From a phage: a stretch of 64,000 bases of DNA. A program made the translations under genes and the position numbers. Location of the stretch: sequence record PQ724393.1; one strand, 5' to 3'. This document shows positions 16,577 through 25,747 of the stretch, piece after piece. The stretch's first letter is position 1; every line of letters starts with the position of its first letter. The notes beneath the pieces are model-generated. The model was not told where the DNA came from and did not search any database. It worked only from the letters and a program-made list of their open reading frames with translations.

Positions 16577-17026
16577 TCAAAAGAGCGAATCTAAAACCTT
16601 AAACATCGACGGGCCCATGACATATTTCCATTGTGGACGTTTAATCAAGGCAAAAGCATCGAATTCAGGAATCGTACGACCATCAGGGAACGTATGGTAA
16701 GCTGTACATTTGCAATTCTTGAACTGCTCGTGTTCCACAGGCACTGTATATAAGAACAGATGTAGATTCTTATTGCTTGAATATTTGAACTCACCTAGGT
16801 CTTTCAGGAATGCAGGATCGTATGCCGTGAATCCAATCTCTTCTTCGGTTTCACGCATTGCGGCTTGAATAGGCTCTTCGCCTGGTTCTACATGACCTTT
16901 AGGAATGTCCCATTTATGACGCATGTTCTCTGGATTACGAGAGCCTGTTACACGACCCATAACTAGTTCTTTATCAACGGTCATGAACAAAATACCGGCA
17001 GATAGTTCTTTAACTTTCTTACTCAT
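16577..17026 (-). CDS. nudE: Nudix hydrolase
   Basis: Nudix box GHVEPGEEPIQAAMRETEEEIG; start set to internal ATG (MSKKVKEL) giving 150 aa. Confidence 0.8.
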   Translation of the reverse strand: MSKKVKELSAGILFMTVDKELVMGRVTGSRNPENMRHKWDIPKGHVEPGEEPIQAAMRETEEEIGFTAYDPAFLKDLGEFKYSSNKNLHLFLYTVPVEHEQFKNCKCTAYHTFPDGRTIPEFDAFALIKRPQWKYVMGPSMFKVLDSLF

Positions 17027-17255
17027 CGTCTCGTTCCCACGATTGTTTAAAGATATCTTGCATAATAATTTGAAGTCTATTTTCTGATGATGGACTTTCA
17101 CTATCAGACACTTGAAGCATATAGTCACCAATAGGACAGAACATATCCATATCGCTTTCTAAGTCTTCTTTGATTTTCTCTTCTGACGTTCCGGTATCAT
17201 AGGAATACAGATAAGAATCACATGACTCAGATTTAATATAAATTGCAATACTCAT
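17019..17255 (-). CDS. hypothetical small acidic protein (78 aa)
   Basis: ORF with ATGA overlap to upstream gene. Confidence 0.4.
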   Translation of the reverse strand: MSIAIYIKSESCDSYLYSYDTGTSEEKIKEDLESDMDMFCPIGDYMLQVSDSESPSSENRLQIIMQDIFKQSWERDDE

Positions 17256-17845
17256 TTACGGCATTCCTTAATAAACTCATTTAAATTATGTTTGTTTTTA
17301 CCTTCGTCGTAAAGACGTTGTTGACGACGTAAACGCCATGGCATTTCAATAGCCAAGCACCAAATACTTAAAGCAGCGCCAGCTGTGAAAAGATTCATTA
17401 ATCCGGCGCCAATAATAGTTCGTTCTAGCGCATCATTCCAGTTAGCATCGATTAAAAATGAACTCAACACTAACATTGGAAGTAAAGTAATAAAATACGC
17501 TACAACATATCGTCCGAACGTAAGCCATTCAGTATCGATGAGCTTAGCCTTTCCATCTTGGAGACAAATATACTTATCGTCAGTGCGGGTGATTTTCTTT
17601 ACCGGTTGCCAACCATTTACGATATAACCCATTCTGAACTCCTCAATTAAAAGCTGTTTCATTTCGGCAGTACAACCTGACCAATCTATTGTACTGGCTG
17701 AAATTCCTTCATCACAGTCATCGATATTTCGCCAGGACTTTTTAATAATCATATGTTCACCACTTGGGATAATAATTCCAGCATTTTCCGACCGACGGAT
17801 GAAGTTTGTATCAATACCCATACAACCAGGTTCATAAAGGGCCAT
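17252..17845 (-). CDS. membrane protein (197 aa)
   Basis: several TM segments in C-terminal half. Confidence 0.5.
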   Translation of the reverse strand: MALYEPGCMGIDTNFIRRSENAGIIIPSGEHMIIKKSWRNIDDCDEGISASTIDWSGCTAEMKQLLIEEFRMGYIVNGWQPVKKITRTDDKYICLQDGKAKLIDTEWLTFGRYVVAYFITLLPMLVLSSFLIDANWNDALERTIIGAGLMNLFTAGAALSIWCLAIEMPWRLRRQQRLYDEGKNKHNLNEFIKECRK

Positions 17846-18531
17846 TACCAGCCCTCCATAGGAAATTCCAGATATACTTGAGCATTAACGCGGATTTCAT
17901 TTGTAATCTTTTTAACACGGTCGGTATTACGAGACACACGACCAAACCAGCGCCACCCGTTACTTACTGCACGAGAACCTGTATGCCATGTTTGCCAATC
18001 AAACTGGAGTAACGTGCGGTCAGGAGCATCCCACTTGGTTAATTCATTGGACTCAATTTTTTCCAGAACTTCTTTATGCCACTGGCGATAGATAAGTTCG
18101 CCTTCAGGAATCTGACTGAACTGTGCAGTTCCGGTTGCAAAATGAGTAGGACACACATCAGCATTAACAAGACCAAGAATATGTTCAGAATGGTATCGAG
18201 GATTATCATAATCAGGTTGCCCTGCGGTAATAAAGTGTTGACCCACCGGAATATCTGGACGTGGTACATCATCATGGTGGAAGCCTGGAATTGCAGGGTA
18301 CCAGCCGGGCATTAACATGTGTACACGGGAATCAAATACGCATTCAACGGCTTTCCACTCATCAGGGAGATTAGTAATAAAGCTACGAGTAATAGGACCA
18401 CCATTTTGTGCAGCAAAATTCAAATCACAGTTAAAGAACATAGGCTCGTTTTTAATATCATCATTAGAAATATGACCTGCAAAACCACCTACTGCACGAG
18501 CTTTAGAATTAAAAGTTTTTGGACCGTTCAT
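17845..18531 (-). CDS. hypothetical protein with possible 2OG-Fe(II) oxygenase motifs
   Basis: GFHHDD (HxD), later WHTG (distal His) and GRVS (RxS); by eye only. Confidence 0.45.
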   Translation of the reverse strand: MNGPKTFNSKARAVGGFAGHISNDDIKNEPMFFNCDLNFAAQNGGPITRSFITNLPDEWKAVECVFDSRVHMLMPGWYPAIPGFHHDDVPRPDIPVGQHFITAGQPDYDNPRYHSEHILGLVNADVCPTHFATGTAQFSQIPEGELIYRQWHKEVLEKIESNELTKWDAPDRTLLQFDWQTWHTGSRAVSNGWRWFGRVSRNTDRVKKITNEIRVNAQVYLEFPMEGW

Positions 18532-18545
18532 AATATTTTCCTCAC

Positions 18546-18758
18546 TTACTTTTTGTTGAAAAAGTACATTTTACCTTTAGGAGATAAGGATACACGAAGG
18601 GCGTTACCAATACCAACTGAACATTTAACCAGGTCAGCAGATTTCAATTCACCAAATGCTTGACGAAGGTCTCCATCACGAGTGTTAACCATCAGGCATT
18701 TAGCACCAGCTGCACGAACTTCGTTTAACATGTTGATTGCTTGGTTAGAAAGTTTCAT
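18546..18758 (-). CDS. hypothetical small protein (about 70 aa)
   Basis: start moved to internal ATG downstream of the promoter element that lies inside the track ORF. Confidence 0.4.
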   Translation of the reverse strand: MKLSNQAINMLNEVRAAGAKCLMVNTRDGDLRQAFGELKSADLVKCSVGIGNALRVSLSPKGKMYFFNKK

Positions 18759-18795
18759 TTTATTCTCCATTTCACTCTGTTGTTTTGATAGGTCT

Positions 18796-18824
18796 ATAGT
18801 ATCACACCTATAGACCTTGTACAC
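18796..18824 (-). promoter_or_regulatory. repeated promoter-hairpin element (inverted repeat GGTCTATAG / CTATAGACC)
   Basis: core TTGATAGGTCTATAGTATCA; 9-bp inverted repeat. Confidence 0.45.
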
Positions 18825-18836
18825 TGTTTTGTGCAA

Positions 18837-19796
18837 TTATTTTTCGAAAGGACGAATTAAATGATGGTTATCTTGGAAACGCTTGATGTAGTCGTTTTCA
18901 CCTAAAGTCTTATACATATTCACTACAGCTTGGTAGTTTTCCCAGGCGTACTCGCGGAACCAACCTGAAGTGATTGAGGTACACACTTTCTCAAGAGCCA
19001 TATAAAAACTTAATGATGGTGAAATATTGAAGTCATTAGGAACCTGTGAACGTTCTAGTGCCAGGACACAAGTTTCTTCATATACACCAGCCAGTTTAAT
19101 AGCTTCGGGCAAAGCCTCGAACTTCTCACGAGAGGTCATGACTTCAGAACCTTCCTTCATATAAAAGGTATATGCAGGGCGTCCAGCCAATGCTACTGCT
19201 TCATGAATAGAGTCATGGTCCAGCGTATAAATGGTATCATTAAAGAACGATGATTTGTTTACGTCCAATTTAGGGTGAGAATAGCTCAACGTTTCTTTTT
19301 GACGTTGCAACATAATTTCCCGGAGTTCTTCGTTCAGGGTGATACCTTTATTACGAAGGTATTTGATGTGGGACATAGTTTTCAAGAAGAACGGATTATT
19401 CTTCAGGAAACGATGAGAGGTTTTGATAGCCAGACAGATATCAGGCGTTGCCCAATAGAAACCAGTAAGACGGTCCTTTTTAATATGATTTTCAGCATAT
19501 TTCAGGAGACGATAACTTGAAGTGAAATCTTCGTCTTGAAGCTCGCCAGTAATTTCTCGTACGTTAGTCAGAGCACGGACAATATAAGCTTCAAAATAGG
19601 TTTCTTTACCATTGTACATACATTTAAAGGCCTGGACATCAGGATTATCCACAGGAACATGAGCGCCGAACATCCGGGCTTTAAAGTGATTCCATGAGCC
19701 TTGGTCGGCAATGAAATCCCAATCAGAATTTTCGATATGCTTACTTTCAATCAGACCAGCGTGGTGCAGTGCACGAGAACCAATAACTAGCATCAT
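18837..19796 (-). CDS. hypothetical protein (319 aa)
   Basis: long ORF; N-terminus LVIGSRALHH...SDWDF loosely NTase-like but spacing atypical. Confidence 0.55.
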   Translation of the reverse strand: MMLVIGSRALHHAGLIESKHIENSDWDFIADQGSWNHFKARMFGAHVPVDNPDVQAFKCMYNGKETYFEAYIVRALTNVREITGELQDEDFTSSYRLLKYAENHIKKDRLTGFYWATPDICLAIKTSHRFLKNNPFFLKTMSHIKYLRNKGITLNEELREIMLQRQKETLSYSHPKLDVNKSSFFNDTIYTLDHDSIHEAVALAGRPAYTFYMKEGSEVMTSREKFEALPEAIKLAGVYEETCVLALERSQVPNDFNISPSLSFYMALEKVCTSITSGWFREYAWENYQAVVNMYKTLGENDYIKRFQDNHHLIRPFEK

Positions 19797-19998
19797 AATA
19801 TTTTCCTCATTAATAAAGACGAGTTACTTCATATTTACCCAGTTCAGATTTTTTTGCTTCAATACGCGTTGCGGCTAGATTAGCAGCCTCTAGTGAAGAA
19901 AATTGGACCACTTGGGAAGTATTCTGCCTTACGCCACCTTGTGGGTGAGTAACAAAAACAATAAGAACATTATACATAATATTTTCCTCAGAGTAAAC

Positions 19999-20238
19999 TT
20001 AAATTTCAGCAACGTAATCGTTATGCAATTCCCACATATCATCAGAATTATTCTTAATGATAGGAATTATCTCATTAGAGATTTCTTCTGCATAAGGGTC
20101 ATTGATACAGTGGGCATCTTCAAAACGAACACCGTAATCAGACTTCTTATAGGCAAAGCCATAAATCTTTTTAAACTTGGCACGACTAATTCGTACCGGC
20201 TCATCAGACTTATCAGACAATGGAGAGTAATACCACAT
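19999..20238 (-). CDS. hypothetical small protein (79 aa)
   Basis: short ORF. Confidence 0.4.
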   Translation of the reverse strand: MWYYSPLSDKSDEPVRISRAKFKKIYGFAYKKSDYGVRFEDAHCINDPYAEEISNEIIPIIKNNSDDMWELHNDYVAEI

Positions 20239-20281
20239 ATGTTCTCCTCATGTTTGTGTAGGGTAATAGTAACATGATTTT

Positions 20282-20626
20282 CTAGAGTTGTACATCACTT
20301 CTGCAATATTCTAAAAATAATTTATCGTTGTCTACGGTATCCCAACGACGCCAAGATGGGTTCCAGACCAAAGCGTTGTCACCACAATCATTGAGCTTAA
20401 AATGGTCGTAGTACATAGCTATATGTCTGGTTTCGTCACCAGAGAACCCTAGTATAGGCTCACCATGAGTATGATACATATGATGGTGCATTGAGAGGTC
20501 GCATTTGTAAAACATCTCACGTTTACCACGAATGAACAAGAAAGCTTGACCATTCATATAGAATTCTTTATCTGTTTTCAAAAGATATTTGAATACCGAA
20601 TCTTTATGCATAAGTCCTCCTACCAC
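20282..20626 (-). CDS. hypothetical protein (114 aa), His-rich segment
   Basis: ORF; MHHHMYHTHGE segment. Confidence 0.45.
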   Translation of the reverse strand: MVGGLMHKDSVFKYLLKTDKEFYMNGQAFLFIRGKREMFYKCDLSMHHHMYHTHGEPILGFSGDETRHIAMYYDHFKLNDCGDNALVWNPSWRRWDTVDNDKLFLEYCRSDVQL

Positions 20627-20641
20627 ATCCTTGTGGTTAAA

Positions 20642-20869
20642 TTATTTTCCTAACGAAACACGAGTAGGTTTTTTACCAAAATAGTCTTCATAAGACCCAT
20701 CTAAACGACCTGCTTTAGACCGACAATATGAATCGTACTTTTTGTAATAAGTCATCTCGGTATTATAACGCGGGTGTCTATCAGCCATAATAATACTTAA
20801 CGGCCAACCTTTGGCATAATCGCGAAGACCATTTATTTTACGAATGTATCTTTTCTTTAATTTTAGCAT
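20642..20869 (-). CDS. hypothetical small basic protein (75 aa)
   Basis: short ORF overlapping upstream stop. Confidence 0.4.
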   Translation of the reverse strand: MLKLKKRYIRKINGLRDYAKGWPLSIIMADRHPRYNTEMTYYKKYDSYCRSKAGRLDGSYEDYFGKKPTRVSLGK

Positions 20870-21087
20870 GAGCTCGGATACCAGATTTTACCATCAGAAC
20901 GAGCAACGAAGGTTCGGCCGGCTTCTTCGCCGTAACAAGAGCTATTCAGCCAATCTTCAAGACGAACTTCACCATCATAATCATCAAGCTCAACACCAAA
21001 ATCTTGTGCAGAAGCCATATCTTTTACTTTCTTATACAGCGCAGCCAGTTCAAGAGCAGCTTTTTCTAATTCATTAATATCAGACAT
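20863..21087 (-). CDS. tandem-family small protein 1 (C-terminus ...KIWYPSSC)
   Basis: member of five tandem paralogs with W-x-[SNP]-S-S..C C-terminus. Confidence 0.5.
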   Translation of the reverse strand: MSDINELEKAALELAALYKKVKDMASAQDFGVELDDYDGEVRLEDWLNSSCYGEEAGRTFVARSDGKIWYPSSC

Positions 21088-21096
21088 TTTATTTCC

Positions 21097-21327
21097 TTAG
21101 CAAGACATAGAGGAGTTAAACCAGAAACCCTGGCCATCATTGATACCGTAATCACTGCGAATCCAGTCATATTCTTCGTATTCTTCGCTAGAAGCCGGAA
21201 TATAACGCTGGAAACGGTCTGCGGCGTGTAAATTAAAAATTTCGCCGGTTTTATCGGCCAGCTGCTCACCTTCACAGATTAGTGCACGGATTTGGTCTTC
21301 GATTTCTTTAACAGTTTTAGAAGTCAT
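21097..21327 (-). CDS. tandem-family small protein 2 (C-terminus ...GFWFNSSMSC)
   Basis: 9-nt spacer to neighbour; conserved junction TGC-TAA-GGAA..ATG. Confidence 0.5.
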   Translation of the reverse strand: MTSKTVKEIEDQIRALICEGEQLADKTGEIFNLHAADRFQRYIPASSEEYEEYDWIRSDYGINDGQGFWFNSSMSC

Positions 21328-21336
21328 TTTATTACC

Positions 21337-21534
21337 TTAGCATTCGTAAGAGGAGGACACCCAAGAGGTACCACTAATTGTAATACAACCATTATAAAGC
21401 GTGATATGACGTTCCAGGTCACGAACACCGTCGATATAGATATCAGCTTCTTCGCGTTCTTCTTTACAAATCTGGATAACGTTTTCAATAGCTGCGGCTG
21501 CAGTACGGATTGCACAATCTAGTTCACGAGACAT
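21337..21534 (-). CDS. tandem-family small protein 3 (C-terminus ...TSWVSSSYEC)
   Basis: same family. Confidence 0.5.
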   Translation of the reverse strand: MSRELDCAIRTAAAAIENVIQICKEEREEADIYIDGVRDLERHITLYNGCITISGTSWVSSSYEC

Positions 21535-21543
21535 AATAATTCC

Positions 21544-21825
21544 TTAACATTCAGAAGAAGAGGATACCCATCCACCATTTTCTAGGCTGGTAGTGTAATC
21601 ATGTTGGTTTACAATAGCGTACTGAGCTTCACCGTATTCTTCCCAGTGGGCCAGGTCAGCTTTCAAGGCGCCAGGAGAATAATAGTCACCGCCCATACCG
21701 CGAGCAGGGTATATATTAAAATGAGTCTCATATTTGTTGGCAATTTCCTCGGCACGACGAATAGCTTTATGGATATCATTTACTGCAGCAGCCAGCTCTT
21801 TATTTTTACGGTAATCATTCATCAT
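21544..21825 (-). CDS. tandem-family small protein 4 (C-terminus ...GGWVSSSSEC)
   Basis: same family. Confidence 0.5.
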   Translation of the reverse strand: MMNDYRKNKELAAAVNDIHKAIRRAEEIANKYETHFNIYPARGMGGDYYSPGALKADLAHWEEYGEAQYAIVNQHDYTTSLENGGWVSSSSEC

Positions 21826-21834
21826 AGCGTTTCC

Positions 21835-22125
21835 TTAGCACATTGCCGAAGAGGAGACCCAAGCACCAACTGTAACGACGCCATTTTCAACTTCACCACC
21901 ATTGTTTTCAATTTCATCTTTAAACCACTGGGAGCATTCATAACCAACAGGGTAGTATGTACGTCCTGAGCCATAATCACCTGTTCCGAATTGAATACCG
22001 TACTTATCGGCAATAGCTTCACATTTGGATTCGATGGTATCCACTTTATTCAGAAGAGCATAGATAGCCTTTTCTGCAGATTTCTCGTCATTGTATTCAG
22101 GGATTTCAATTTCAATTTTATTCAT
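21835..22125 (-). CDS. tandem-family small protein 5 (C-terminus ...GAWVSSSAMC)
   Basis: same family. Confidence 0.5.
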   Translation of the reverse strand: MNKIEIEIPEYNDEKSAEKAIYALLNKVDTIESKCEAIADKYGIQFGTGDYGSGRTYYPVGYECSQWFKDEIENNGGEVENGVVTVGAWVSSSAMC

Positions 22126-22475
22126 GATTTACATTCCTTAATAAAGGTTTCAAGGTCATTACGTTTGGTTTGTTTTACATACTCATTATAATTAGCCATC
22201 TCTAAAGCATATCTCTTTTTACGTGGCTTGTTTATTTTATTAGTTTGGGCGATATCAAAGACCAATGGGATAAAGTATCCTATTAAAGCCGGAACCCAAA
22301 TCCATGCGAGGCTCATATCTTCAAACGGATGGCGAGGCATACCATTAATAATCCCGCCGACAAGAAATCCAATTATCCCTGCAACCATACTAGTAGCAAT
22401 GCCGAGGAATAATGAAATAGAGATATCGTAATCTGCTAATGCGTAACCAGGGTCGGTTTTACTAGGCTTATACAT
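22122..22475 (-). CDS. membrane protein (about 117 aa)
   Basis: start set to internal ATG (MYKPSK) overlapping upstream stop; two TM segments. Confidence 0.45.
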   Translation of the reverse strand: MYKPSKTDPGYALADYDISISLFLGIATSMVAGIIGFLVGGIINGMPRHPFEDMSLAWIWVPALIGYFIPLVFDIAQTNKINKPRKKRYALEMANYNEYVKQTKRNDLETFIKECKS

Positions 22476-23004
22476 TTTGGACCTCTTTGGCGTATTCGCG
22501 GCATTCAGCAATAAAACGATTAAGCTTACGTTGTTGTTTACGACTTTCTAATGTGTATTCGTTGGCTAAAATAATAAGCTCATCTTTATCGTAGTTTTTG
22601 ATATCCGAATAACTCGGGCGACGGTCGATCATTCCAAATACATCACCATTTTCTAAAGCTACATAGCATACTAAATGGTAATCATCGTCTGCCATATTAA
22701 GAAGCACACAATCAGCGCTCTCGTTTAAAGAATATACTGAATAACGTAGTCCGGCGAATTCCACTCGTTGAATAGCCAGATTTACGTCAATAATTTCCAA
22801 AGCATCTTCAAAAGAAAGGTCTTCAGCTAAAGCAAAAATAAAAGGTAATTTGGTAGTATCGCCACGGCTAGATGTTCTGCTTAAGAAATCGTTTGAATAG
22901 CCTAGGTCTTGGCGAATTCTATAAAGAACTGAATTGGTTTCATGGGAAAGACCGCTATTTTTAAACCAATCAATATTGGATATCAAATTATCATATAAGC
23001 TCAT
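22468..23004 (-). CDS. hypothetical protein (178 aa)
   Basis: ORF. Confidence 0.5.
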   Translation of the reverse strand: MSLYDNLISNIDWFKNSGLSHETNSVLYRIRQDLGYSNDFLSRTSSRGDTTKLPFIFALAEDLSFEDALEIIDVNLAIQRVEFAGLRYSVYSLNESADCVLLNMADDDYHLVCYVALENGDVFGMIDRRPSYSDIKNYDKDELIILANEYTLESRKQQRKLNRFIAECREYAKEVQNV

Positions 23005-23025
23005 AATATTCTCCTCTCCTCCAAA

Positions 23026-23043
23026 TAGGGAGACCGAAGTCTC
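23026..23043 (-). terminator. hairpin, possible weak terminator
   Basis: GGGAGAC-CGAA-GTCTCCC; weak U-run. Confidence 0.4.
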
Positions 23044-23052
23044 CCAGTAACA

Positions 23053-23646
23053 TTACTTAAGTGAATTAATGTAGTCTTCGATATCAGCAGAAGTCGTATC
23101 CATTCCAACTTGCGGGCCTTTAAACGTTTCTACACGAAGTAGGGTATCTTCAATATCAATCTTAGTCAATGCGGCGATTTCAACAACATCATCGGCAGTA
23201 GCAATACCCAGGGCAGCCATATTACGAGTTTCACGAATGTACTCAAGCTTAACCGCTAGTTCCTGGCGAGAGTCATCAAGTTCCTTGACCTTAAGCTTAA
23301 TTTCATTACGCATTTCAACATAATCATCGGCTTTCTTACGAAGTTGAGTAGCCGTACGACGATAAAGGAGGCCAAGTTTAGCATGCACCTGAACATCAGC
23401 ACCTTCTTTAATCAGTTTACGAATTTCACGTTCTTTAGAACTAGCCAGTTGGTCCTTTTCGTTAGCGAGTTCACGAATACGTTTTTCTTCATTCACGGAC
23501 TTAACATGAGCAGTCTGGAGTTCAGTGATTTTATCAATCAGAGTAGAAGCCGCTTTGGTGTATTGGTCTTCGATTGACAGGTTCTGAGACATTGCTGTAC
23601 CCAGTTTAGAACGGATGAATTCAACGATTTTCTTTAAAGTGTTCAT
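23053..23646 (-). CDS. coiled-coil protein (197 aa)
   Basis: heptad-rich, charged; no specific motif. Confidence 0.55.
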
Positions 23647-23689
23647 AGTATTTCCTTCAGTTGGTTAACGTTTTGTAATCCATGAGGAC

Positions 23690-23719
23690 ATTATACCCTG
23701 TCCTCTGAGGGATGTAAAC
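23690..23719 (-). promoter_or_regulatory. sigma70-like promoter (GTTTAC-N18-GTATAAT)
   Basis: minus strand GTTTACATCC...GTATAATG upstream of gene at 23646. Confidence 0.5.
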
Positions 23720-23721
23720 AT

Positions 23722-24120
23722 TTATTTCATTTTTGCGAGGCAAATTTCATTGGCTTCCCATTGAGCTTGCTTAATAATAGCTTTGGATACAGGAGCCCTT
23801 TGGCCATAAGTTTTTGACGTTGAGAGAACAATACATTTGTTTGCTTCATTATGCCAGCCCCATGATTTTTCGCCATGGGTGCCTTTAACTACAGCTGACA
23901 CCTCAACAGAGCAACCACCATCAGAAATCTTGGTTTCGACAATCCATTCATTTCTCTCAGCAGCTTCAAGTTCCAATCTAGTTTTTTCTTCATACATCGC
24001 GGCCCAATCAGTTTTTGCCAAGTTGAAAGTAAGAGCTTTCTCTAATTCTTTGGCATATTTTTGTTGTTCAGGTGTTAATGAATTATACAACTCTTGCATT
24101 TCTTTATCTTCGATATTCAT
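23722..24120 (-). CDS. hypothetical protein (132 aa)
   Basis: ORF with GAGGAG RBS. Confidence 0.5.
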   Translation of the reverse strand: MNIEDKEMQELYNSLTPEQQKYAKELEKALTFNLAKTDWAAMYEEKTRLELEAAERNEWIVETKISDGGCSVEVSAVVKGTHGEKSWGWHNEANKCIVLSTSKTYGQRAPVSKAIIKQAQWEANEICLAKMK

Positions 24121-24145
24121 TATGATCTCCTCAAATTATGGGCTC

Positions 24146-24175
24146 ATAATATCTTAATCATGGGCCCATGTAAAC
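24146..24175 (-). promoter_or_regulatory. sigma70-like promoter (GTTTAC-N18-TATTAT)
   Basis: upstream of 23722..24120. Confidence 0.45.
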
Positions 24176-24178
24176 GTT

Positions 24179-24457
24179 TTATTTCATATTATTGAAATAA
24201 TCTTCCGCATCAAAATCGTTATCATGATAAACTTTGGTAGACAATTTAACATAACCTTCGGCGGCGAACATATTAACCACAACCTTTACAGTATACCATT
24301 GTCCATCATCATTACCCATTACTGCATAGGTTTCAAATATGGGATGGTCATCACCGATAACTTTAATATCGTTAACTGTAGCACCAAATTCTTCAGGAAC
24401 GCATTTCATAAAGAAATTAAACAATTCACCATAATTATCCATTTTACTCTCCTTCAC
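24179..24457 (-). CDS. hypothetical small acidic protein (92 aa)
   Basis: ORF with GGAG RBS. Confidence 0.5.
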   Translation of the reverse strand: MKESKMDNYGELFNFFMKCVPEEFGATVNDIKVIGDDHPIFETYAVMGNDDGQWYTVKVVVNMFAAEGYVKLSTKVYHDNDFDAEDYFNNMK

Positions 24458-24477: not shown

Positions 24478-24506
24478 ATAGTATCATGTTCTACGAAAGA
24501 GTAAAC
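24478..24506 (-). promoter_or_regulatory. repeated promoter-hairpin element (GTTTAC-N17-TACTAT)
   Basis: core TTGATAGGTCTATAGTATCA. Confidence 0.5.
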
Positions 24507-24530
24507 ATCTTTTTTAAACTTTTTAGAAAC

Positions 24531-24558
24531 AAAAAAGGCCCAACCTTTCGGAAGGGCC
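24531..24558 (-). terminator. rho-independent terminator (minus strand)
   Basis: A-run then GGCCC..TTCGG..GGGCC hairpin on plus strand. Confidence 0.6.
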
Positions 24559-24650
24559 TAGAATCAGTTCTTGTAGAACCGGAATGGGTTTATGTGGAAG
24601 GCTAACATAGCTTTTATTTTAAAAGTTTCATATATTTCTCTAAGTTAACC

Positions 24651-24670
24651 AAAAAAGCCCCAGACGGGGC
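24651..24670 (-). terminator. rho-independent terminator (minus strand)
   Basis: AAAAAA-GCCCC-AGA-CGGGGC immediately after IP-like gene stop. Confidence 0.7.
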
Positions 24671-24675
24671 TTTCG

Positions 24676-25140
24676 TTATTTGATTTGTTTAGCAGACCAG
24701 ATACGGTCTTTGATGATTTTCTGAATATCTTCAACATACTCTAAGTCGTGAGCATGCGGATTATCTTTGAAGCTATGTGCTCGTGCCAGTTTCTGGCCTT
24801 CTGTTTTGATTACTAAAAGCTCTTTAAGAATTGCTTCATACTTAGAAATGATTCCTTTAGCGATATTTTTTTCTTGAGCGGCTTTAGGGTCCGCTTTTGA
24901 CGCAGGTGCTTTACCTGTAGCTTTCTGGAACAATTCACCTGATGCAGCTAGGCTTTTAAAAACTCGGCTAACAGTATTAGCATTAGTAAAACCTTCGGCT
25001 TTAAAATCTTTAATAAAACGGAAACGTTCTTCATCAGAGGCGTCTTTGTAAGAATATTTACCTGCTTGAATTGCTGCAATCGCGGCGGCTTTTACATCTG
25101 AACTAGATTGTTCGGTCAAAAATTCATTGTAAGTTTTCAT
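24676..25140 (-). CDS. internal-protein-like protein with capsid targeting sequence (MKTYNEFLTE)
   Basis: CTS-like N-terminus; 154 aa, Lys/Ala-rich; located beside tRNA cluster, not at a canonical T4 ip locus. Confidence 0.6.
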   Translation of the reverse strand: MKTYNEFLTEQSSSDVKAAAIAAIQAGKYSYKDASDEERFRFIKDFKAEGFTNANTVSRVFKSLAASGELFQKATGKAPASKADPKAAQEKNIAKGIISKYEAILKELLVIKTEGQKLARAHSFKDNPHAHDLEYVEDIQKIIKDRIWSAKQIK

Positions 25141-25181
25141 TATTATTTCCTAAGTTAATTAACTTATCTATTTATTATGCC

Positions 25182-25209
25182 AAAAAGCCCCAACCTTTCG
25201 GAAGGGGCC
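25182..25209 (-). terminator. rho-independent terminator (minus strand)
   Basis: AAAAA-GCCCC..TTCGG..GGGGCC hairpin. Confidence 0.65.
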
Positions 25210-25589
25210 ATGCCTTGCGGTAACCTTGTCGGGGTTCCACCTGCTAGGCAAGTGTTTGTACGAAACGCCAGGATTCGAACCCGGTTATTAAGCAGTTGAC
25301 GCTACTCAATATTTTTAAAAGGCCATATCTCGACCATATCCGAACGTTCCGTCAAAAACGCTACTCGGCTTACGGCAAAGATATTTCCTCGAATCGATAA
25401 TTAGGTGCGCCGTTTCTGCTGTGATGTAAGGGGACATTAACAGATCGTAAAGATTTGTTAATGCCAGTCCTTACTCAGGGAACATCAGTCCGACGACTTA
25501 CCGGTAGCGACCCGGTTTCTTGTTTGTTGCGCCGGTGAATGCTGGTAATCAGTCTTCATACGACGGCTTGACTATATAATAGTCTTCAT

Positions 25590-25670: not shown

Positions 25671-25747
25671 TGGTGACCCGGACCAGATTTGAACTGGTAA
25701 CCTTTCCCTTATGAGGGGACTGCTGCTAACCATTGAGCTACAGGGCC
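25671..25747 (-). tRNA. tRNA with CAU anticodon (Ile-type as in T4, or Met)
   Basis: minus strand GGCCCTGTAGCTCAATGGTTAGCAGCAGTCCCCTCATAAGGGAAAGGTTACCAGTTCAAATCTGGTCCGGGTCACCA; anticodon loop CCTCATAAG. Confidence 0.75.

Follow-up and report, generated by a model that had tools for sequence, protein, structure and literature searches.

It is very likely that the 7.4-kb interval between nudE and the tRNA genes of the phage genome PQ724393.1 represents the hyperplastic region that lies between e and the tRNAs in T-even phages of the JS98 type (genus Dhakavirus), and that two of its components, the nucleotidyltransferase-like gene g05 and a tandem family of small genes whose products end in a W..SS..C tail, belong to a linked pair; this judgement covers both statements jointly and excludes the chemical mechanism. 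As a whole the region is already known and ordinary, a further copy of the published Dhakavirus hyperplastic region. The g05-family pair is previously undescribed and phage-wide. The window analysed here is a stretch of 64,000 nucleotides, and all positions refer to its first letter. Within it, 19 open reading frames (ORFs) on the minus strand, g01 to g19, follow nudE (16577-17026) and extend to 24457, and g20 is the next gene before the tRNAs. A preliminary description of the sequence had noted a block of about 20 small genes at this place, and this count holds.

Identity of the block

Along its entire length, the DNA of the block (17019-24457) shows 98.4% identity to Escherichia phage fDHCT2, the record of which has 20 hypothetical proteins annotated under the match. 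About fifty JS98/IME08-type phages (Dhakavirus, Straboviridae) are 90-95% identical to the block, and 51 records cover at least 80% of it. On the strength of these identities the block is present in published genomes: JS98, IME08 and similar phages carry it, with the genes labelled hypothetical or 'similar to RB69 ORF130c-139c'. The block is flanked by denV, an IpIII-like gene, e and nudE on one side and by homologues of rnaC and rnaD and two tRNAs on the other; these conserved flanks are 92-98% identical to the relatives and to T4.

Several of the ORFs are shorter than 80 amino acids and g06 overlaps a promoter-like motif, which might be taken to mean that many of the small ORFs are not genes and that the block is partly non-coding spacer. 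This is extremely unlikely, since each of the 19 proteins has a PHROG family match with an E value of at most 4e-10, mostly full-length, the ORFs lie on a single strand throughout and are separated by ribosome-binding sites or joined by overlapping stop and start codons, and amino-acid identity is kept across genera. The same matches contradict the earlier view that the genes are mostly orphans, and for g03, g05 and the tandem family the homologues run to hundreds or thousands of clusters. Searches of the block proteins against Pfam, NCBIfam and PADLOC yielded nothing informative beyond DUF7277 and DUF7275 of g05, apart from weak coiled-coil Pfam matches of g17; as to an anti-host role, there was no match in PADLOC or NCBIfam. 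Sequence searches of the PDB with g03, g05, the e.6 and e.8 homologues and a profile of the tandem family gave no meaningful match.

Plasticity among close relatives

A gene-content matrix of nine Dhakavirus-like IMG/VR loci provides an overview of the variation within the block. The gene g04 is absent from three loci (L013, L015 and L016), g07 and g08 from two, g09 from four and g12 from one, and g06 is present in only three of the nine; g06 is found in JS98, but not in IME08. The alleles of g11 are 50-81% and those of g15 45-94% identical among these loci, and g03, g05, g10, g13 and g14 are constant. Gene presence and absence together with allele swaps among close relatives bear out the description of the interval as hyperplastic.

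Two breakpoints stand out at the DNA level. The half of g02 that encodes its transmembrane (TM) segments (17296-17602) has no DNA similarity to JS98 or IME08, and a second breakpoint is located at 24524-24663. Beyond it, 24663-25525 (g20 and the sequence upstream of it) is 93.9% identical to Mosigvirus moha DNA, and the g20 protein is 95% identical to moha_41, compared with 25% identity to the JS98/IME08 gene of the same slot. The TM half of g02, g11, g15 and g20 are, judged by these comparisons, replaced alleles. Overall, the region resembles that of JS98, IME08 and RB69-type phages in having essentially the same genes in the same order, and this phage differs from JS98 and IME08 in the TM half of its e.2 homologue, in the g11 and g15 alleles and in the Mosigvirus-type g20 cassette.

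A nucleotidyltransferase-like protein and its tandem family

The genes of the pair are the following, with tails given as they end the protein.

g05, 18837-19796, minus strand: 319-amino-acid (aa) protein resembling Pol-beta-type nucleotidyltransferases, Pfam DUF7277 and DUF7275
g10, 20863-21087, minus strand: family member, tail WYPSSC, phrog_899 at E 4e-10
g11, 21097-21327, minus strand: family member, tail WFNSSMSC, variable allele, phrog_899
g12, 21337-21534, minus strand: short divergent member, tail WVSSSYEC, phrog_4882, with the N-terminal helix and the tail only
g13, 21544-21825, minus strand: family member, tail WVSSSSEC, phrog_899 at E 6e-20
g14, 21835-22125, minus strand: family member, tail WVSSSAMC, phrog_899 at E 9e-24

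The g05 protein belongs to a large group of more than 2000 clusters at 90% identity. In an alignment of 35 sequences the residues G6-S7, D25-x-D27 and E69, which constitute the Pol-beta nucleotidyltransferase signature, are invariant, and 76-79 of 80 further homologues from diverse phages retain the signature; the helical C-terminal domain also has many invariant polar residues. The predicted structure (predicted local distance difference test, pLDDT, 91.7) contains the nucleotidyltransferase alpha/beta fold, and a Foldseek search with it finds MenT1 as the best match (probability 1.0), followed by TglT/MenT3 and MenT4. No membership in the DUF1814/AbiEii sequence models was found for g05, with Pfam giving DUF7277 and DUF7275 only and PADLOC none. 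Conserved signature and predicted fold suggest that g05 is a conserved Pol-beta-type nucleotidyltransferase that is probably catalytically active. Its distribution is wide: tblastn with g05 detects 734 phage records, including phages of Acinetobacter, Pseudomonas, Vibrio, Stenotrophomonas, Streptomyces and Gordonia.

The tandem family comprises at least 309 clusters at 50% identity in a profile search, with proteins mostly of 70-110 aa and a few of up to 175 aa. Its consensus starts with an N-terminal helix (AE.IAD.yG), continues with a hairpin (xFxF...YGMGGTYYP; also YG(M/S)GxxYYP) and a variable acidic linker, and finishes with EG-W-x-S-S-S-x-x-C. Within the tail the W, both S residues and the terminal C are invariant, with the spacing W-x-S-S-x(0-3)-C, and for nearly all of the 150 clusters listed, the final profile position is matched at the protein end or no more than one or two residues before it. 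The family has no Pfam family and no solved relative. The five tandem genes recognised in the preliminary description are confirmed as such: among the 389 stop-to-stop ORFs of the window that reach 50 aa or more, the five genes g10 to g14 and no others carry the pattern W.{1,2}SS.{0,3}C$.

Three phages with differing surroundings have family genes directly upstream of their g05 homologue: the Tulanevirus AS-gz of Aeromonas, the Otagovirus phiPsa347 of Pseudomonas and the Phapecoctavirus Schickermooser of Escherichia. The association was quantified in 80 IMG/VR loci selected solely for a g05 homologue, counting family ORFs within 4 kb. A family ORF is found near the g05 homologue in 69 of these loci, and the family ORFs are almost uniformly arranged, with 135 upstream on the same strand, one downstream and none on the opposite strand. 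Grouped at 60% identity, 16 of the 21 g05 clusters have a family ORF, and four of the remaining five have upstream ORFs missed by the hidden Markov model (HMM) that end in a similar tail (W, Ser-Ser and final Cys). A reciprocal search started from 13 loci retrieved by a degenerate DNA pattern for YGMGGTYYP alone, of which three are cut at the relevant end; a g05 homologue follows directly downstream in all ten informative loci. The number of family copies per g05 locus ranges from one to six. A scan of 185,579 bacterial and archaeal species, each represented by one genome, found the module on only five contigs, all from metagenome-assembled genomes (MAGs), and the pair therefore looks phage-specific. 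No mention of DUF7277, DUF7275, the two Pfam accessions or the two PHROG identifiers was found in the literature searched.

Order and strand that persist in such different contexts strongly support the notion that g05 and the W..SS..C family act together. Two points weigh against it: in this phage four inserted genes part g05 from the family, so the coupling is not strict, and many of the 80 loci are related to one another, so the counts overstate their independence. Linkage could also reflect nothing but shared ancestry of a transcription unit, its members having no direct functional interaction. The four genes between g05 and the family in the window, which are unrelated to either, would fit this explanation, as would the one g05 cluster (L068, L069, L072 and L083) that has no family-like ORF. 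We nevertheless regard it as quite improbable, given that gene order and orientation persist across Otagovirus, Phapecoctavirus, Tulanevirus, Tevenvirinae and contigs of more than 350 kb though the surrounding genes differ, and given the outcome of the reciprocal search.

Some individual loci and features of the family genes deserve mention. The largest array is found on IMG/VR contig 3300046477_000062 (L085, 2362-5364), where six family paralogues surround one g05 homologue and include the sole downstream copy. In AS-gz (L006, 5515-10788) the family genes and g05 lie between nrdD and thioredoxin/glutaredoxin genes, and an e.6 homologue follows 1.3 kb further; e.6 may travel with the module. 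In the window (20866-22125, minus strand) four of the five family genes end in TG(C/T) TAA GG, such that the last Cys codon and the stop form the Shine-Dalgarno sequence of the next gene (TAAGGA or TAAGGT). The end of g10 is different, ...TCATGCTAA, with the g09 start codon inside it. The terminal Cys is also invariant in distant homologues without this overlap of Cys-stop and Shine-Dalgarno sequence.

What the pair may do

A tentative proposal, and one that may well prove wrong, is that the Ser-Ser/Cys tail is an acceptor: g05 would nucleotidylylate the invariant tail of the small family proteins. It is favoured here because the reactive tail residues are invariant, the paralogues are multiple and divergent, and the second domain of g05 is highly conserved. 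More speculative, and on balance unlikely, is the extension of this idea to a phage-specific protein or peptide modification system, in which g05 and the W-x-S-S-x-x-C proteins would serve to alter the C-terminal tail covalently and the one to six paralogues would be modified effectors against host targets. The modification could be nucleotidylylation of a Ser, perhaps with a subsequent elimination and an attack by the terminal Cys, a route that would resemble the chemistry of ribosomally synthesised and post-translationally modified peptides (RiPPs). No Pfam domain of known RiPP or lanthipeptide enzymes (LanB/C/M/KC, LanD, radical S-adenosylmethionine enzymes and others) is present in any of the 20 proteins g01 to g20.

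Polymerase-beta-fold nucleotidyltransferases that modify a small protein partner encoded alongside are known from GlnD-PII and from AMPylation in MNT-HEPN pairs, where the acceptor is a Tyr in a loop or motif. The candidate acceptor in the phage module would be a C-terminal Ser-Ser/Cys tail instead.

An analogy with toxin-antitoxin pairs leads to the chief competing proposal, that the W..SS..C proteins are inhibitors or regulators of g05, which would be a MenT-like enzyme extending the 3' ends of host tRNAs. The structural matches of g05 to MenT1, TglT/MenT3 and MenT4 speak for it, as does the gene for a small acidic protein directly upstream in the same orientation, at a distance that can be as short as 4-60 nt; MenA1, which blocks the tRNA nucleotidyltransferase MenT1, is a short protein antitoxin (PMC10435456). 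MenAT and AbiE (DUF1814) pairs indeed resemble the g05 module in combining a bi-lobed nucleotidyltransferase and a helical domain, their fold being the best match, with a small partner gene just upstream. The module differs in that g05 has no sequence membership in DUF1814/AbiEii and is phage-restricted, known here from its sequence and predicted fold, and in that its partner family is unrelated, has one to six copies and carries an invariant C-terminal tail. Up to six divergent partners per enzyme would be unusual for an antitoxin, an invariant reactive tail of Ser-Ser and terminal Cys suits a substrate better, and the module is absent from bacterial genomes save for the five MAG contigs. There is no general linkage to tRNA genes either: the module is located beside them in five of 51 loci, and the proximity of tRNAs in this phage therefore says little. 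Taken together, we regard an antitoxin-like role as rather unlikely, and the tail as a candidate acceptor remains the preferred reading.

Comparison with the T4 e.2-e.8 interval

In T4, seven genes occupy 3.1 kb between nudE and e.8, compared with 19 genes in 7.4 kb here. BLASTP of the block proteins against those of T4 e.2-e.8 gave the following results.

g02 and T4 e.2: 40% identity, in the N-terminal part
g15 and T4 e.3: 22% identity, E 1e-9
g17 and T4 e.6: 74% identity
g19 and T4 e.8: 85% identity, from residue 6 of the listed ORF
g16 and T4 e.5: a short C-terminal motif only
g18 and T4 e.7: no match

Clear T4 counterparts thus exist for four of the 19 genes (e.2, e.3, e.6 and e.8), and one-to-one orthology with T4 e.2-e.8, which would run counter to the preliminary description, is therefore refuted. 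No counterpart of g01 and g03 to g14 was found by BLASTP among the T4 e.2-e.8 proteins, and g01, like g18, has no T4 match. Profiles of g03, g05 and the tandem family run against the entire T4 genome in six frames returned zero matches, and across the whole genome no T4 ORF ends in the C-terminal motif of the family. T4 nrdC.3 had been suspected of being a g05 homologue from its size and thioredoxin neighbour (compare Aeromonas phage AS-gz); a whole-T4 HMM search found nothing, and this candidate was dropped.

Both intervals have e and nudE on one flank and rnaC/rnaD and tRNA-Arg on the other, both are read from the same strand, and e.2, e.3, e.6 and e.8 are orthologous. Unlike the block, the T4 interval is without g01 and g03 to g14 and contains in e.4 an additional paralogue of e.3; in the e.5 and e.7 slots, the proteins of the two intervals have little or no relationship to each other. 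Moreover, T4 e.2 as annotated (102 aa) looks like the frameshift-split remnant of a longer protein with two TM segments, because T4 DNA between e.2 and nudE (NC_000866, 67475-67633) encodes in another frame IEMPWRLRRQQKIFDEKKYAQNLNNFITECRKLK, which is 55% identical to the C-terminal tail of g02 (window 17252-17400).

Reduced in T4 or expanded here

The long layout is not confined to Dhakavirus. It is also found in Mosigvirus (phage moha), Kanagawavirus (Edwardsiella phage PEi26) and one Klebsiella T4-like phage, in which g03 is 78-89%, g05 72-75% and e.6 62-72% identical to the genes of the window. The recurrent order is nudE, g01, e.2, g03, one variable gene, g05, a few small genes, three to five family genes, an e.3-like gene, the e.5 slot and e.6. 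Within this order, a backbone common to most Tevenvirinae (e.2, g03, g05, the W..SS..C family, e.3, the e.5-slot protein and e.6) is broken up by cassettes that differ between close relatives (g01, g04, g06-g09, g18 and g20). The e.8 gene, common to T4 and the block, was not found in the Mosigvirus, Kanagawavirus and Klebsiella-phage loci.

As several genera have the long layout at comparable identities, 'reduced in T4' is preferred over 'expanded here'. In the simplest reading, the long layout would be ancestral for the subfamily, Tequatrovirus would have lost the middle, and T4 e.2-e.8 would be a reduced derivative; what tells against it is that the direction of change, loss in T4 versus gain elsewhere, rests on parsimony over few genera. 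The preliminary description had instead envisaged a recent, lineage-specific expansion of e.2-e.8 by accretion of orphans and tandem duplication. Such an expansion would explain why g04, g08 and g09 were found in no loci but Dhakavirus-like ones, and not in all of these, why g06 is limited to three of nine, and why Mosigvirus has three family copies compared with five here. However, g03, g05, the family, g01 and g07 occur in the same order in other genera at 42-93% identity, g05 and the family are found far outside the T4-like phages, and no gene of the block is an orphan. Recent expansion is, overall, unlikely, and for the backbone it is largely refuted. Reduction in T4 thus stays the preferred account. 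The earlier interpretation of the block is partly supported in sum: the interval is larger than in T4, and its hyperplastic character and non-T4 layout were recognised correctly, whereas the orphan status and the phage-specific expansion were wrong.

Promoters, terminators and gene packing

A generic scan did not reveal regulatory elements above chance level, with 32 sigma-70 sites compared with 28 expected and six terminators compared with 6.2 expected. It was therefore replaced by a T4-specific early motif together with direct reading of the sequence. The T4/PST-type early promoter consensus TTTACW-N17-TAYWAT (PMC4122927) occurs six times in the window, against 0.23 expected, and three of these sites are inside the block on the coding strand. 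The elements are listed below.

18796-18824, minus strand: early-promoter-like cassette upstream of g04, GTGTACA ... TACTAT, its 5' leader common with g19 (alignment)
19969-19997, minus strand: perfect early-promoter motif TTTACT-N17-TATAAT overlapping the g06 start, the -10 lying within the first codons of g06
22185-22209, minus strand: MotA-type middle-promoter-like site TGCTTTA-N12-TATAAT, 60 nt upstream of g14, a pattern match only
23028-23045, minus strand: hairpin GGGAGAC-UUCG-GUCUCCC after e.6 (g17), -13.2 kcal/mol, z -2.1, weak U tract
23690-23718, minus strand: early promoter motif TTTACA-N17-TATAAT upstream of e.6 (g17), from the motif scan
24146-24174, minus strand: early promoter motif TTTACA-N17-TATTAT upstream of g18, from the motif scan
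24478-24506, minus strand: early-promoter-like cassette GTTTACT-N16-TACTAT upstream of e.8 (g19), read from the sequence
24531-24559, minus strand: terminator hairpin GGCCC-UU-CC-GAAA-GG-UU-GGGCC followed by U6, upstream of g19, -18.1 kcal/mol, z -3.1
24651-24673, minus strand: terminator hairpin followed by U6, after g20, -15.4 kcal/mol, z -3.1
25182-25209, minus strand: second copy of the GAAA-loop hairpin, downstream of the rnaC homologue, z only -1.2

The motif at 19969-19997 could be either the driver of g05 or the remnant of a cassette insertion. Stable hairpins on the coding strand number four, three of which are followed by a run of five to six U, the hairpin after e.6 being the exception. 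All elements other than the promoter-like sites at g04 and g06 fall in the tRNA-proximal third of the region, while from g07 to g15 neighbouring genes either have just a ribosome-binding site between them or overlap at their stop and start codons. The idea that genes of the block are separated by promoters and terminators of their own thus applies to the tRNA-proximal third, g04 and g06, and does not extend to g07-g15.

T4-like phages are known to carry hyperplastic regions with PeSL promoter/terminator cassettes (Comeau, Arbiol and Krisch, PMC4122927; Arbiol et al. 2010, PMC2839356), and the PeSL model is that of Arbiol and Comeau. Like those regions, the block is set between conserved gene blocks and consists of small early genes of unknown function with variable content among close relatives; it likewise has TTTACW-N17-TAYWAT promoters and stem-loops at junctions and repeated cassettes at swap boundaries. 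The -10, leader and ribosome-binding site of the g19 cassette are nearly identical to those of the g04 cassette, and copies of this DNA are found upstream of e.8 in JS98 and IME08 and at two T4 sites. The GAAA-loop hairpin at 24531-24559 is a 31-nt exact repeat in JS98 and IME08 and stands at the boundary of the swapped g20 cassette. Repeated promoter/leader or terminator sequences accordingly stand at the g04, g19 and g20 boundaries. Cassettes would, in the PeSL model, move by recombination at such repeated early-promoter/leader and terminator sequences, a step for which the breakpoints are the basis here. The block departs from the PeSL description in that about a third of the junctions carry elements and the tightly packed middle is without them, and in that recombination at the elements is deduced from breakpoints. 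It also counts against this part of the picture that the promoters and terminators of the block are pattern matches and that the generic scan remained at chance.

An oxygenase-like protein, g03

The second widely conserved enzyme-like gene is g03.

g03, 17845-18531, minus strand: 228 aa, Fe(II)/2-oxoglutarate dioxygenase-like

It has more than 1300 clusters at 90% identity, the 120 best of which are 68-93% identical; these come from T4-like phages of many genera infecting Escherichia, Klebsiella, Serratia, Erwinia, Citrobacter and Aeromonas, and one UniRef name among the clusters reads 'phytanoyl-CoA dioxygenase family'. The invariant residues H85, H86, D87, D88, H183, R194, R198 and S200 have a spacing that is plausible for an HxD...H...RxS oxygenase. 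In the AlphaFold model (pLDDT 88), nearly all top Foldseek matches in the PDB are Fe/2-oxoglutarate oxygenases (WelO5, EvdO2, proline hydroxylases, HalD and GriE; probability 0.9-0.98). With PhyH-like Fe(II)/2-oxoglutarate dioxygenases such as WelO5, EvdO2 and proline hydroxylases g03 would have in common the double-stranded beta-helix, predicted in its case, and the H-x-D ... H ... R-x-S motif; it differs from them in having no Pfam or PDB sequence match and TM-scores of 0.3-0.4. The assignment depends on these TM-scores, Foldseek E values of about 2e-3 and the motif spacing, and the putative HxD lies in a loop of pLDDT 61-85, all of which tempers it. With moderate confidence, g03 is predicted to be Fe/2-oxoglutarate dioxygenase-like. 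As it accompanies g05 only in enterobacterial and some Aeromonas T4-like phages, its function is probably separate from the g05 module.

Other genes of the block

The remaining genes are listed here; the starts of g02, g04, g08, g15 and g19 were revised by profile or T4 homology.

g01, 17019-17255, minus strand: 78-aa acidic protein (pI 4.1), RB69 ORF130c type, phrog_2900 at E 3e-37
g02, 17252-17752, minus strand: e.2 homologue, two TM segments, tail LNEFIKECRK, phrog_2203 'membrane protein'; the ORF extends to 17845 and homology begins at M32
g04, 18546-18758, minus strand: small basic protein, phrog_6001, start M27 set by the shared 5' cassette
g06, 19810-19977, minus strand: 55-aa protein, phrog_20278
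g07, 19999-20238, minus strand: 79-aa acidic protein, RB69 ORF135c type, phrog_3723, 42% identical in Mosigvirus and Kanagawavirus
g08, 20282-20611, minus strand: 109-aa protein, phrog_9796 from residue 6, among the compared loci only in Dhakavirus-like ones
g09, 20642-20869, minus strand: 75-aa basic protein, phrog_7065, among the compared loci only in Dhakavirus-like ones, start overlapping the g10 stop
g15, 22122-22475, minus strand: e.3 homologue, two TM segments, tail LETFIKECKS, phrog_2330
g16, 22468-23004, minus strand: soluble acidic 178-aa protein in the e.5 slot, tail LNRFIAECRE, phrog_8788
g17, 23053-23646, minus strand: e.6 homologue, 197 aa, charged helical (coiled-coil-like) protein
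g18, 23722-24120, minus strand: 132-aa protein in the e.7 slot, unrelated to T4 e.7, phrog_8232
g19, 24179-24442, minus strand: e.8 homologue, 87 aa
g20 (outside the block), 24676-25140, minus strand: candidate internal head protein, weak match to phrog_7857 'internal virion protein'

The gene g01 is present in Dhakavirus and Mosigvirus and absent from T4. Membrane proteins had been noted in the block from the outset, and g02 and g15, with two TM segments each, correspond to them. The coiled-coil protein of the preliminary description is best equated with g17, which is charged and helical, though the coiled coil itself has as its basis weak Pfam matches (APG6_N, E 0.03) and the sequence; its homologues reach as far as an Aeromonas phage (53% identity), and a PDB sequence search found no solved relative.

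The proteins g02, g15 and g16 share a tail motif, [LM]-x-x-F-[IV]-x-[ED]-C-[RK], after a basic stretch (at about 17252-17290, 22122-22160 and 22480-22530, respectively). The same tail is present in the T4 e.2 remnant, e.3 and e.5, and a variant of it in e.4. This tail may be a common interaction tail joining the two membrane proteins g02 and g15 and the e.5-slot protein g16.

The N-terminus of g20, MKTYNEFLTEQ, resembles MKTYKEFIAEA, the start of the IpIII-like protein of the window, which is an internal head protein in the T4/JS98 annotation. On this resemblance and the weak PHROG match, g20 is probably a packaged internal protein.

The tRNA-proximal flank

Homologues of rnaC and rnaD, small stable RNAs of T4, are located at about 25260-25398 and 25405-25523 (minus strand), and 25177-25526 is 91.8% identical to the T4 region. 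An Rfam scan of the window detected the two tRNAs only, and no Rfam family detects the rnaC and rnaD homologues. The tRNA at 25671-25747 (minus strand) is called Met(cat) by ARAGORN; its identity to T4 tRNA-Ile, the anticodon of which is CAU, is 98.7%. A CAU anticodon is read as Ile once it is modified with lysidine. This tRNA and tRNA-Arg(UCU) are the only two here, compared with eight in T4, and segB is absent from this phage.

Implications

The block as a region changes nothing in the current view of T4-like genomes; it illustrates their known architecture of a conserved core and a plastic periphery. T4 itself serves poorly as a reference here, the long layout being the common one, and the naming of the relatives' genes as 'e.x' conceals conserved oxygenase-like and nucleotidyltransferase-like genes. 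If the proposed modification of the tail were true, it would constitute a new enzyme-substrate class across T4-like, jumbo and other lytic phages, concealed until now by two Pfam DUFs and an unnamed PHROG. The linkage of g05 with the W..SS..C family is the one item of the block worth pursuing, and it offers a concrete two-component system for testing in a tractable coliphage.

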